Position numbers and translations under genes: made by a program. From contig WTBR01000050.1 of the NCBI GenBank assembly GCA_013138975.1, positions 3,123 to 67,122 on the forward strand: a stretch of 64,000 bases of DNA, read 5' to 3'. Positions 32,781 through 43,863 of the stretch are shown in pieces. The DNA is from Bacteroidales bacterium (GTDB lineage Bacteria > Bacteroidota > Bacteroidia > Bacteroidales > UBA12077). The stretch's first letter is position 1. Each line of letters starts with the position of its first letter. The notes below the pieces were generated by a model. That model saw only the letters and a program-made list of their open reading frames with translations. It was not told the DNA's origin and did not search any database.

Positions 32781-35072
32781 ATGAAGATTAATGTAAAAAT
32801 GCTTGCTTATATCCTATCTACTTCAATGTTAATTTTTATTACATCTGTTGGGTATATAACTTTAAAATCTAGAAACTTATCGCTAAAAGAAGCGCAAGAT
32901 CTTACGAACATAACAGCGCAAAAATATGCCAATGTTATTAAATCTGAATTAACTTCCGATTTCAATATCGTAAAAACTATTGCACAAGCTGGTCATGCAT
33001 ATTTATCTGTTCCTTGGGATCAGTGGAATAAAGTATTTTTAGAGCAACAACAAAATGTTATTAACGAAAACCCGCATTTTCTTGCTGTAGCAACAGCTTG
33101 GGAATTAAAATATATCGACCCAGAATGGAATAAACCTTTTGGTCGCTATACAAATGGTTGGGTTCGTGATGTTGATGGAACTATAAATCATTACGAAACT
33201 AAAGCCGGTCTCGATGGAGATGACATAAATGGTAATTATTATACAATGAAAACAACTGGTGTTTCTATGATAGTTGATCCTAAATTATGGTCTCCAACTG
33301 GTAGAATAGAAGATCAATATCTTAATACAAACTTATCGGTACCTATTAAGTTAGGTAATTCATTTATTGGTTTAGCTGGAGTTGATATCGATCTTAATAA
33401 ATTTCAAGATATTATTGTAAATATTAATCCTTTTGAAGAAAGTTTTTCTTTCCTGTTGTCTAATGATGGAACCATAGCGGCACATCCAAATTTAGAATTA
33501 ATGGGTAAATTAATTTCAGAAGTATTCCCTGAGTTTACAGAAAAATATAATATTGACGAAAAGGTTAAGAAGGGTGAAAACTTTTCATTCACACATAAAA
33601 AAGAAAATGGTGAAAAAGATTTTTACGTTTTTGCCCCAATTAATATTAAAGGAATTAATACACCATGGTCCTTAGCTATTTCAGTTCCTAATAAAGTTAT
33701 AACATCAGAATCAAACAGTATTTCATACAATGCATTAATTGTATGTTTTTTAGGATTGATATTATTAACAGTAGTAATTTGGCTTATTTCAAAAAATATT
33801 ACAGATCCTGTTATAAAAATTACTGAAATTCTTAAAAGCCTTGCTAAAGGTAAAATTGATGAGTCATTATTGATGGACGTAAAAACCAAAGACGAAATTG
33901 GTGAAATGGCTCTAGCACTAAATACATCAATTCAAGGTTTAAACAAAAAAACAGCATTTGCTAATCAAATAGGTTCTGGAAACATCGACTTTAAATTAGA
34001 TCTGGTAAGTGAGGACGATCAACTAGGTCAATCCTTAATAAATATGCGAAATAGCCTTTTAAAGGCAAATTCAGAAGAAGAAAAACGAAAAATTGAAGAT
34101 GAAAAACGCCGTTGGATAAATGAAGGTTTGGCTAAGTTCGCTGAGATACTTAGAAATAATAATAATGACTTAAATATCCTTGCTAATGAAATAATTAAAA
34201 ACCTGGTTTACTATATAGATGTTAATCAAGGAGGATTATTCATACTAAACGAACAAGAAGGATCTGTTATAAATTATGATTTGCTTGCTGCTTTTGCTTT
34301 CGATAGAAAAAAATTCATCAAAAAAACAATTGAACTAGGTGAAGGCTTAGTTGGATCTTGTGCAAAAGAAAAAAACACAATTCATTTAACTGAGGTTCCG
34401 GAAGATTATATTAATATAACATCGGGTTTAGGTGAGGCAAATCCTAATAGCTTATTAATAATTCCATTAATAATTAACGATGAAGTTCTTGGAGTTATTG
34501 AATTAGCCTCATTTAAAAAATTTAAAAAACACGAAATTGAATTTATTGAACAGGTAGCCGAAAGCATTGGAGCAACTTTAAAATCAGTCCGTATTAATTC
34601 AAAAACATCGTACTTACTTGAACAGTCGCAACAACAAGCAGAAGAAATGGCTGCGCAAGAAGAAGAAATGAGACAAAATTTGGAAGAGCTTCAGGCAACA
34701 CAGGAAGAATCTACCAAGAAAGGCAACGAATTTAGTAGCGTATTAAACAGTATCGATAAGTTTATATTAAAAGCTGAATTCGATTTAAATTTTAAATTAA
34801 TAAATGCGAATGATCTTTTCTTAAAACAATTCAAATATACAATGACCGAAGCTTTAGGAATGGAAGCAGAAAGTTTTATCGCTAAAAAAGATATTAGTAA
34901 ATTTCATGAAATTTCCAACACCGTTATGTCAGGAAACTCACATCAGGAAATTACATATTTAAAAAATAAAAATGGAATTGATTTAAGGCTACTTACGTCA
35001 TTTGCTCCTGTTTTTATTAATGAAAGTTTTAATAAAATTTTATTTCTTGCAGTAGATTTAAAAGATTATTAA
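32781..35072 (+). CDS. Cache-HAMP-GAF-coiled coil-PAS membrane receptor 1 (one repeat unit)
   Basis: 2 TM around a dCache domain, KTKDEIGEM HAMP, GAF (QGGLF...GEGLVG...GVIELAS), AQEEEMRQNLEEL coil, PAS. Confidence 0.85.
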   Translation: MKINVKMLAYILSTSMLIFITSVGYITLKSRNLSLKEAQDLTNITAQKYANVIKSELTSDFNIVKTIAQAGHAYLSVPWDQWNKVFLEQQQNVINENPHFLAVATAWELKYIDPEWNKPFGRYTNGWVRDVDGTINHYETKAGLDGDDINGNYYTMKTTGVSMIVDPKLWSPTGRIEDQYLNTNLSVPIKLGNSFIGLAGVDIDLNKFQDIIVNINPFEESFSFLLSNDGTIAAHPNLELMGKLISEVFPEFTEKYNIDEKVKKGENFSFTHKKENGEKDFYVFAPINIKGINTPWSLAISVPNKVITSESNSISYNALIVCFLGLILLTVVIWLISKNITDPVIKITEILKSLAKGKIDESLLMDVKTKDEIGEMALALNTSIQGLNKKTAFANQIGSGNIDFKLDLVSEDDQLGQSLINMRNSLLKANSEEEKRKIEDEKRRWINEGLAKFAEILRNNNNDLNILANEIIKNLVYYIDVNQGGLFILNEQEGSVINYDLLAAFAFDRKKFIKKTIELGEGLVGSCAKEKNTIHLTEVPEDYINITSGLGEANPNSLLIIPLIINDEVLGVIELASFKKFKKHEIEFIEQVAESIGATLKSVRINSKTSYLLEQSQQQAEEMAAQEEEMRQNLEELQATQEESTKKGNEFSSVLNSIDKFILKAEFDLNFKLINANDLFLKQFKYTMTEALGMEAESFIAKKDISKFHEISNTVMSGNSHQEITYLKNKNGIDLRLLTSFAPVFINESFNKILFLAVDLKDY

Positions 35073-35129
35073 AAACATATTAAAGCTAAATCCGTAGATA
35101 CTATCTTTAGCGATTTTTATCATTTATTA

Positions 35130-42444: not shown

Positions 42445-42471
42445 TAATCCACATTAAATATTTAATCCAGC

Positions 42472-43863
42472 ATGAAGAATAATATTTTTTTTACAATTGA
42501 TAAAGAGAAATGTGTTAACTGTCATCAATGCATTGCAGTTTGCTCAACAAAATTCGCAAATAATGGAATTAATGAAATAATTGAAGTTGTTAATGATTTA
42601 TGCATAGGTTGTGGAGAATGCGTTAAAGCCTGTTCTCACGATGCAAGAATTCCAATTGATGATTTTGATTCAGCAATGACTGCTTTACAACAAAAAGAAA
42701 AGGTAATTGCAATTATTGCTCCAGCTGTTGCATCAAATTTTCCCAATCAATACTTAAATTTAAATGGATGGCTTAAATCTCTTGGCATTGAAGCCATTTT
42801 TGATGTAAGCTTTGGTGCTGAACTAACTGTAAAATCATATTTGGAGCATATTCAGAAAAATAAACCAAAGCTTGTTATTGCACAACCTTGTCCTGCAATT
42901 GTTCGTTATATTCAAATTTACAAGCCAGAATTAATACCTTATTTAGCACCAGCAGATAGTCCAATGGTGCATACAATGAAAATGATTAAACGCTTTTATT
43001 CAAAATATAAAGATCATAAATTATTAGTTGTGTCTCCTTGTGTTGCAAAAAGAGTTGAGTTTGAAGAAACAGGAATAGGTGATTTTAATGTAACCATGTC
43101 CAAGATTCAAAACCATTTAAATGATAATAAAATCAGCTTAGAAGATTTTCAGAAAGTTGAATTTGACAATGACCCTGCTGAGCGAGCTGTTTTGTTTTCT
43201 AGTCCTGGAGGATTATTGGAAACTGCAGAACGAAAAGTTCCGGGGATAAGATATCAAAGTAGAAAGATTGAAGGACCTCATACTATTTATAAATATCTTG
43301 AAAAATTAGAAAAACAATTAGAAAAAGGAATGACTCCTTTGCTTATTGATTGTTTAAACTGCGAATTAGGGTGTAATGGCGGAACCGGCACCAATTGCTA
43401 CGATAAATCCCCTGATGAACTTGAATATTATGTAAATCAAAGAAGTATCGAGGCACAAAACAAACAAAAAACAACAGAAAACAACAAAATAACTACAGTA
43501 CAATACGAACAGCTAGTTGACAAATATTGGGAAGAAGGTTTATATGATAGAACATACGAAGATTTATCTTCAAATACATCAATCATTAAAATCCCCACAG
43601 AAGATGAGCTTCAAAACATCTACACTTTAATGGATAAACACAAAAAAGAAGATCATAAGAATTGCTCTAGTTGTGGATACGATTCTTGCGAAATTATGGC
43701 AGTAGCTATTTTTAACAATCTTAATAAAGCTGAAAATTGCCACCATTATTTACATGAAGAATTAAATACAAAGACTGTTGAGGCAAATAATCAAAAAGAT
43801 GAAATTATAAAAGATTCCGAAGCTATTTTGAGTTTAATTTATAAAATTCGACAATCAATCTAG
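42472..43863 (+). CDS. [FeFe]-hydrogenase-like Fe-S protein (sensory group C/D-like), no output domain
   Basis: CVNCHQCIAVC and CIGCGECVKAC; AQPCPA, SPCVAKRVE, DCLNCELGCNGG; C-terminal CSSCGYDSC...NC. Confidence 0.88.
   Translation: MKNNIFFTIDKEKCVNCHQCIAVCSTKFANNGINEIIEVVNDLCIGCGECVKACSHDARIPIDDFDSAMTALQQKEKVIAIIAPAVASNFPNQYLNLNGWLKSLGIEAIFDVSFGAELTVKSYLEHIQKNKPKLVIAQPCPAIVRYIQIYKPELIPYLAPADSPMVHTMKMIKRFYSKYKDHKLLVVSPCVAKRVEFEETGIGDFNVTMSKIQNHLNDNKISLEDFQKVEFDNDPAERAVLFSSPGGLLETAERKVPGIRYQSRKIEGPHTIYKYLEKLEKQLEKGMTPLLIDCLNCELGCNGGTGTNCYDKSPDELEYYVNQRSIEAQNKQKTTENNKITTVQYEQLVDKYWEEGLYDRTYEDLSSNTSIIKIPTEDELQNIYTLMDKHKKEDHKNCSSCGYDSCEIMAVAIFNNLNKAENCHHYLHEELNTKTVEANNQKDEIIKDSEAILSLIYKIRQSI

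Follow-up and report, generated by a model that had tools for sequence, protein, structure and literature searches.

Four Bacteroidales receptors without output domains, a hydrogenase-like protein encoded behind them, and their possible link to a CheR/CheB–PP2C–SiaC cluster

RsbK of Bacillus cereus has the architecture CHASE3-HAMP-GAF-S-helix-kinase; its S-helix is methylated by the CheR-type methyltransferase RsbM, and its output is a PP2C phosphatase reached via RsbY (PMC4574943). In Pseudomonas aeruginosa, the SiaABC(D) proteins form a threonine-phosphorylation switch (PMC7647112, PMC8457831), and HydS-type (group C) sensory [FeFe]-hydrogenases such as Thermotoga maritima HydS (TmHydS) contain ferredoxin clusters, an H-domain and an extra four-cysteine FeS domain (PMC10055695). 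We analyzed a stretch of 64,000 nucleotides from a Bacteroidales bacterium (contig WTBR01000050.1; hereafter the window, with coordinates counted from its first letter), which contains an operon of four tandem receptors (genes 1-4) and an [FeFe]-hydrogenase-like protein (gene 5). The comparison suggests that the operon genes are a variant of RsbK-like methylatable sensors and of sensory hydrogenases, with a receptor wiring that has not been described. Our best explanation as a whole, held with moderate confidence, is that the receptors belong to a genome-wide network around a CheR/CheB-PP2C-SiaC cluster on another contig (C18) and do not signal to the PP2C or the kinase encoded in the window, and that gene 5 encodes a sensor subunit of receptor 4. 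Below, L-numbers denote fetched loci and G000 the window's genome.

Genes 1-5 are all on the + strand and span 32781-43863, with intergenic gaps of 57, 20, 32 and 27 bp. An earlier reading of the letters without database searches (the sequence-only reading) had described five co-oriented genes closed by a strong terminator at 43900, and the open reading frames, spacing and hairpin were found as it said. The features of the operon are as follows.

32725-32763, + strand: possible Bacteroidota-type promoter, TTTG-N19-TAAGTTTA, read by eye, about 20 bp ahead of the start codon of receptor 1.
32781-35072, + strand: receptor 1 (gene 1), 763 amino acids; two transmembrane segments, dCache_1, HAMP, a HAMP-like segment, GAF (34167-34580), one acidic coil motif (34629-34709) and a weak PAS (34785-35057).
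35130-37712, + strand: receptor 2 (gene 2), 860 amino acids from a TTG codon; diverged Cache, HAMP, GAF (36552-36962), three coil motifs (37011-37091, 37137-37217, 37263-37343) and a weak PAS (37401-37700).
37733-40372, + strand: receptor 3 (gene 3), 879 amino acids; dCache_1, HAMP, GAF (39125-39535), three full coil motifs (39584-39664, 39710-39790, 39920-40000) with one partial copy between them, and PAS (40049-40366).
40405-42444, + strand: receptor 4 (gene 4, of the putative PAS-less transducer type), 679 amino acids; dCache_1, HAMP, GAF (41797-42213), one coil motif (42262-42342) and, after it, a conserved 33-residue helix, MHRKEDRLKGVIEEMKEHEDKLKKTIDKYKSKM (42343-42441).
42472-43863, + strand: putative HydS-like sensor subunit (gene 5), 463 amino acids; two [4Fe-4S] ferredoxin domains (Fer4), H-domain (42697-43383), PF04060 four-cysteine FeS domain (43657-43740) and a C-terminal helix (43732-43860).
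43900-43938, bidirectional: intrinsic-terminator-like hairpin with a 16-bp stem and T/A runs on both sides, which sits between gene 5 and a convergent TPR gene and closes both.

Pfam matched the proposed set of four paralogous dCache-HAMP-GAF-coil proteins with PAS in three. HAMP and GAF were found in all four receptors, and dCache_1 was above the cut-off in genes 1, 3 and 4, gene 2 being a diverged paralog whose Cache is too diverged to score. PAS was above the cut-off in gene 3 and below it in genes 1 (23.4 bits) and 2 (17 bits), and gene 4 had no PAS by Pfam. An ATG downstream of the TTG is the likelier start of receptor 2. Receptors 2 and 3 contain three to four copies of a 42-residue coil unit, while their orthologs in relatives have one copy and about 770 amino acids, which points to a recent repeat expansion that lengthened the stalk between GAF and PAS.

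Pfam and NCBIfam scans of the five proteins detected no HisKA, HATPase, MCPsignal, GGDEF, EAL or SpoIIE, that is, no kinase, methyl-accepting chemotaxis protein (MCP), cyclase, phosphodiesterase or PP2C domain, and the MCP signalling hairpin with its CheA/CheW-binding tip (PF00015) gave no match in any of them. In the AlphaFold model of gene 4 (pLDDT 75.6), Cache, transmembrane/HAMP helices and GAF are followed by helices 586-619 and 634-678, and no domain was present beyond these two; the HisKA H-box and HATPase_c of a sensor histidine kinase were not found, and the model after GAF consists of helices only. A cryptic catalytic domain in the C-termini was ruled out by Pfam, NCBIfam and the AlphaFold models, a check that the sequence-only reading had asked for. 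Since these scans, a search with the coil and the models show no output domain, its description of the operon as output-less is correct. By architecture, the receptors share with RsbK an extracytoplasmic sensor, HAMP, GAF and a signalling helix (PMC4574943). Unlike RsbK, which carries its own histidine kinase and receiver, none of these proteins includes a kinase or a receiver as output. Two-transmembrane topology, a periplasmic dCache_1 domain, HAMP and an abundance of paralogs, often in tandem arrays, are shared with dCache_1 MCPs, as are heptad-spaced pairs of glutamates along a long helix and genetic linkage to CheR, CheB and CheD. Unlike MCPs, the receptors lack the MCPsignal hairpin with its CheA-CheW tip, have an inserted GAF and end in PAS or a short helix, and the family also occurs in genomes without CheW.

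Gene 5 is related to the sensory hydrogenases. Pfam assigned two Fer4 domains, Fe_hyd_lg_C (2e-34) and the PF04060 FeS domain at residues 396-423; the AlphaFold model (pLDDT 65) ends in a single terminal helix (424-462), and the top Foldseek matches to the fold are all [FeFe]-hydrogenases, in agreement with the sequence-level matches. The H-cluster cysteines C140, C190, C297 and C301 and the L2 lysine are invariant across 10 homologs. The H-domain motifs are AQPCPA, SPCVAK and DCLNCELGCNGG; in AQPCPA the proton-relay cysteine is replaced by proline, a sensory-type change, and both methionine residues are also replaced. Gene 5 therefore resembles TmHydS in the order of its domains, in the retention of the H-cluster cysteines, in the loss of the catalytic cysteine and methionines and in the extra C-terminal four-cysteine cluster (PMC10055695). 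HydG is encoded in the genome (507 bits, above the curated cut-off, C57:1594-2997), and a true H-cluster is thus possible. Unlike HydS-type proteins, in which PAS, MCP, kinase or PP2C parts are attached, gene 5 has only a helix of about 40 residues behind the FeS domain, ending 39 residues past the ENCH motif. Among the relatives of gene 5 at 52-62% identity, most are fusions with MCP signalling domains and some are kinase fusions. Within the operon, gene 5 has no gene for a small subunit or a diaphorase as a neighbor. The same genome encodes three further HydS-like proteins with canonical outputs, on C193 (L021) and C57 (L022): one of 578 amino acids with an overlapping SpoIIE gene, one of 620 amino acids with a SpoIIE gene, and one of 659 amino acids fused to HisKA-HATPase. 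These genes neighbor three catalytic HydA genes and HydG on C57.

To find where such a protein could obtain a transmitter, 80 HydS-like loci from many phyla were scored for fusion and neighbors. Eight of the 80 HydS-like genes are stand-alone and end 39-56 residues past ENCH, and in all eight a GAF-coil gene ends 2-73 bp upstream. The other 72 run well beyond ENCH, mostly as fusions to MCPsignal (57), to kinases or to PAS-PP2C (L157, L166), and none of them has a GAF-coil neighbor. L007 and L008 are closely related to the window; the pairing was also found in two independently fetched loci in other genomic settings, from metagenome-assembled genomes (MAGs) of Tenuifilaceae (L009) and Salinivirgaceae (L010), the latter with a gap of 1 bp and a partner without a Cache domain. 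The partner is always of the PAS-less GAF-coil type and ends in ATQEEM.RKE..LK..I.EM...E..LK..I.KYK, and the stand-alone Fe-S protein ends in ENCH.YL..E...QK.EII..SE..L..I.KIR, both being conserved amphipathic helices. Because all eight stand-alone HydS-like genes trail a PAS-less GAF-coil gene, gene 4 is, on the strength of gene order, probably the transducer for gene 5, and the tie between the Fe-S protein and a receptor that the sequence-only reading had proposed is supported. We conclude that gene 5 encodes a sensory hydrogenase-like subunit that has lost its own transmitter, the separate gene-4 protein taking its place. Unlike in the HydS type, its transmitter would thus come from a separate, adjacent membrane protein, with which it may dock helix to helix.

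In the sensory rhodopsin II-HtrII system, a sensor and a transducer pair via their transmembrane helices, and HtrII is a true MCP. Sensory rhodopsin II is likewise a transmitter-less sensor encoded beside a separate membrane transducer through which it works; unlike there, the contact proposed here is a pair of cytoplasmic helices. We know of no earlier case of a sensory hydrogenase working through a separate transducer.

The HAMP-like-GAF-coil part of gene 4 was used as a query to delimit the receptor family. With clusters at 50% identity, it matched 13,114 clusters at E<=1e-3 and 4,337 at E<=1e-30. The GAF-coil module is a large Bacteroidota receptor family: all of the 78 fetched module loci are from this phylum except two contigs (L047, L054) labelled Thiohalospira sp. 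(Gammaproteobacteria), whose family genes are 61-67% identical to the window's module and which are probably a binning error in that MAG. The module is present in 70 of 151 order-level genomes, in one to at least 18 copies each. Cultured bacteria are among the carriers, for example Perlabentimonas gracilis (L058) and a Marinifilum strain. The window's genome has 11 copies, and the sole one with an output (PP2C) is on C18. Some family proteins have up to eight modules by local domain count, and the tail past the last module is about 110 or 270 residues in most. Of the top representatives, the 45 longest-tailed ones have PAS in 44 cases and hemerythrin in three, and HisKA, HATPase, GGDEF, SpoIIE and MCPsignal were all missing from their 25 commonest domain families; the site behind the helix thus serves additional sensors and not outputs. 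The coil motif, ..AEE(L/M)..AQEEE(M/L)RQN(M/L)EEL.ATQEE, was recognized in 146 of 150 representatives, with the E, R, Q and N of its core invariant at 98-100%. It consists of four successive heptads with L/M at the a positions and EE at the two preceding positions. A short member of 446 amino acids in G000 (L019:8066-10480, contig C49) has multiple transmembrane segments, HAMP, GAF and the coil but no Cache, and is followed 48 bp on by a secreted metallo-beta-lactamase-fold protein. The latter was considered as a sensor partner and dropped, as it carries a signal peptide and lacks a tail helix.

These data bear on whether the operon signals at all. If the receptors served as ligand sinks or scaffolds or were the decaying remains of kinases, and if gene 5 were an unrelated redox enzyme that had come to lie at the operon end, the lack of an output domain in genes 1-5, the absence of gene 5 from close relatives and the different numbers of coil repeats between orthologs would be expected. 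However, the frames are intact and the gene-4 orthologs share 73% mean column identity, the family runs to thousands of proteins and its motif is almost invariant, all stand-alone HydS-like genes adjoin a GAF-coil gene, and gene 5 combines the sensory-type exchange of cysteine for proline with the lack of an adjoining small-subunit or diaphorase gene in the operon. We consider the absence of downstream signalling highly improbable.

The only family paralog with an output in this genome lies in the C18 cluster, which encodes two CheR proteins, a CheB without receiver, a small GAF protein, a fusion of the form TM-HAMP-like-GAF-coil-PAS2-SiaA-like PP2C (C18:1052-3673; TM, transmembrane segment), DUF6272 and SiaC (PF09345), and contains no MCP. 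The SiaB-like role of DUF6272 is assigned by position, not by homology. The PP2C fusion, DUF6272 and SiaC stand together in this cluster and not in the window operon. Two CheR genes flank an additional GAF-coil-PAS gene in five other loci, and module genes were also found beside CheR. Fusions of GAF-coil-PAS-PP2C and of HydS-PAS-PP2C exist and join both kinds of sensor to the same PP2C type. Co-occurrence was evaluated in the 151 order-level genomes by Fisher's test, comparing the 54 with strong module hits with the other 97. The ortholog of the C18 CheR was present in 54/54 vs 5/97 (p=1e-35) and SiaC in 54/54 vs 14/97 (p=3e-28). CheR ortholog and SiaC are 1.5-9 kb apart on the same contig in about 30 genomes. 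The C18 cluster is thus a better output candidate than the genes of the window. SiaC-family proteins number 19 in the window's genome (e.g. C121:25853-26206, C190:15603-15956, C81:294-647) and up to 23 in relatives, and about 18 SiaA-like PP2C paralogs stand alongside, a set of partner switches that is very large for a Bacteroidales genome.

Another connection of the family is to chemotaxis proteins. The host order is usually regarded as non-flagellated. A complete che operon on C171 (L028 = G000:C171:111000-128000) encodes CheY, CheA, CheW, MCP, an unknown protein, MCP, CheR, HATPase, CheD, CheB, DUF4407 and a GAF-coil-PAS protein, the last of the form TM-HAMP-like-GAF-coil-PAS x3. Its HATPase_c-only protein has 303 amino acids, and the genome has nine matches to the CheW domain; of the 151 genomes, 57 contain CheW. 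The receptors could accordingly be unconventional chemoreceptors that join or modulate a CheA/CheW array, their output being control of the CheA kinase. A GAF-coil-PAS gene ending the che operon here, the presence of a co-oriented gene of this kind no more than a few kb from canonical CheR in at least 14 genomes from various families, CheW in 44/54 family genomes vs 13/97 others (p=6e-17) and the fusion of most gene 5 relatives to MCP signalling domains all fit this idea. Yet the receptors have no hairpin by which CheA/CheW could be bound, and ten strong-family genomes lack CheW, all ten of which retain the dedicated CheR. A chemoreceptor role is therefore unlikely.

The sequence-only reading had named two outputs within the window, a PP2C at 47918 and a receiver-less kinase at 29446. 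PP2C 47918 (276 amino acids) is SiaA-like (NCBIfam 1e-52) and the sole sensor-less copy among 18 genome paralogs, and its type is fused elsewhere to GAF-coil-PAS and to HydS-PAS, which would speak for it as a partner acting through coils. However, it is paired at a distance of 51 bp with an AAA_15 ATPase (48800, 774 amino acids; the pair spans 47918-51124) that matches the AriA/Old/PtuA/GajA defence ATPases, and L007 contains the same pair. Both genes belong to an insertion in front of atpG; the syntenic loci L001, L002 and L005 lack it, and in these a Peptidase_C1 or SLFN gene abuts atpG. PP2C and ATPase may be a two-gene defence module that uses PP2C. PP2C 47918 was rejected as the main output candidate by reason of its variable-island location and its defence-like partner.

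The kinase (29446-31899) is a dCache_2-PAS-HisKA-HATPase protein of 817 amino acids without receiver. With it begins the co-oriented block, which continues with a YgjP-like gene at 31972. The kinase-YgjP-receptor order is kept in L001, L002, L005 and L008, and YgjP precedes the array in 6/78 further family loci. Against the kinase as the output partner, it is syntenic only in close relatives and is not beside family genes in L006, L009 and L010, and a kinase core is within 10 kb in only 11/78 loci. Its orthologs in L001, L002 and L005 have 946-953 amino acids with a receiver; as only 72 bp separate kinase and YgjP here, the receiver was deleted. The L008 ortholog instead lacks the Cache domain. 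Around the 78 family loci, kinases and stand-alone PP2Cs were not enriched above expectation, and the PP2Cs found there are long TPR-PP2C proteins. Signalling from receptors and Fe-S sensor through coils to the window's PP2C, its kinase or both is therefore quite improbable. Of the split system acting in trans that had been proposed, the output-less receptors and their coupling to the Fe-S protein stand, and the outputs named within the window do not.

We therefore favor a route from the operon to the C18 cluster. In receptors 1-4, the cytoplasmic part consists of HAMP, the HAMP-like segment, GAF and the acidic signalling helix, behind which comes PAS or nothing, and no enzyme. The gene 5 protein would be a detachable H2/redox sensor subunit of receptor 4, probably attached by the pairing of the two C-terminal helices, and both together would form the H2/redox input. 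The EE-heptad helix (x-E-E-(L/M)) is a likely site of reversible glutamate methylation for adaptation by the CheR/CheB of C18. The signal would most likely leave via mixed oligomers with the PP2C paralog or via the shared CheR/CheB, and the pathway would end in a SiaC-type partner switch, for which SiaABC(D) is the model, with the PP2C paralog as the enzymatic output. RsbK/RsbM/RsbY, which has been studied by experiment, is the closest precedent: the C18 cluster has the same logic, with two CheR, CheB, PP2C fusion, SiaB-like kinase and SiaC. Unlike with RsbK/RsbM, no CheR-type gene is in the receptor operon and the dedicated CheR pair is on C18; unlike in RsbK-RsbM-RsbY, a CheB-type esterase is present and the switch protein is SiaC-type, not RsbV/RsbW/sigma-B. 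The likeness to SiaABCD consists in a phosphoprotein of the SiaC family together with a SiaA-like PP2C whose N-terminal part is a sensor; unlike there, the sensor part of the PP2C is the GAF-coil-PAS shared with many output-less paralogs, and CheR and CheB are in the operon.

Several observations weigh against this explanation. The gene 4-gene 5 pairing is facultative, because the congener G106 (L001) keeps receptor 4 without a gene-5 ortholog and L002 has an intact gene-4 tail with no gene 5 in the locus. In favor of the pairing, the gene-4 tail has diverged at its end in G106, where gene 5 is absent. The expectation of the sequence-only reading that receptor homologs co-occur with the Fe-S protein accordingly held only in part, as just 2/78 receptor-family loci contain both. 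The AlphaFold models of genes 4 and 5 are monomers and cannot show docking. The acidic coil alone showed no similarity to MCPsignal even at E<=10 and matched generic coiled-coil families only, and the coil was dropped as an MCPsignal homolog. Its core positions are E and almost never Q, unlike many MCP sites deamidated by CheD/CheB, and by our own reading the motif fits only half of the MCP methylation consensus (AAxxEE, EExxAT). No CheR, CheB, SiaB or SiaC gene is in the window, and 73/78 family loci have no CheR/CheB within 10 kb. The phyletic co-occurrence is in part a given, since family members sit within the CheR cluster, and only the direction "no family without cluster" is thus informative; it is also confounded by lifestyle, as signalling-rich environmental Bacteroidales carry all these genes. 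RNA runs were sought for this stretch, and only DNA metagenome runs from marine sediment were listed. A literature search found nothing relevant on CheR/GAF links in Bacteroidetes.

Some neighbors of the operon were also compared. The syntenic order in L001, L002/L003 and L005 is TsaD, kinase, YgjP, three to four receptors, a convergent TPR gene, an SLFN gene, sometimes Peptidase_C1, and atpG; these loci contain neither gene 5 nor the PP2C. The YgjP-like metallopeptidase gene (31972-32691) immediately precedes the receptor array in every close relative as well as in L006 and L032, which may be plain synteny or a functional link. The gene that converges on the operon end (43968-44954, - strand) encodes a TPR-only protein of 328 amino acids and is syntenic in relatives. 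TPR-PP2C proteins of 762-774 amino acids are divergent from a Cache-HAMP-GAF-coil-PAS gene at L060:7225-9549 and L103:6315-8603, and two more (L040, L083) are within 10 kb of such a gene. Judged by domain content, the window's TPR gene and bare PP2C could be a split version of such a protein.

Little is known about how most Bacteroidota perceive their environment. The GAF-coil proteins are a receptor family of thousands, with up to at least 18 copies per genome and no recognizable way to pass on a signal, for which the tie to CheR/CheB and PP2C/SiaC offers a concrete, testable pathway. A wider and tentative reading is that Bacteroidota have a CheA-independent methyl-accepting system, in which dozens of transmitter-less membrane and soluble sensors share the cassette of GAF and acidic heptad helix, are methylated and demethylated by dedicated CheR/CheB and form mixed complexes with one PP2C paralog that sets SiaC-type phosphorylation; here, with a detachable [FeFe]-hydrogenase-like subunit, it would include a two-subunit H2/redox receptor with adaptation. 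If true, receptor methylation as a means of adaptation would reach beyond chemotaxis arrays and the single example of RsbK, and the gene 4-gene 5 pair would be a tractable system for H2/redox sensing in sediment and gut anaerobes.

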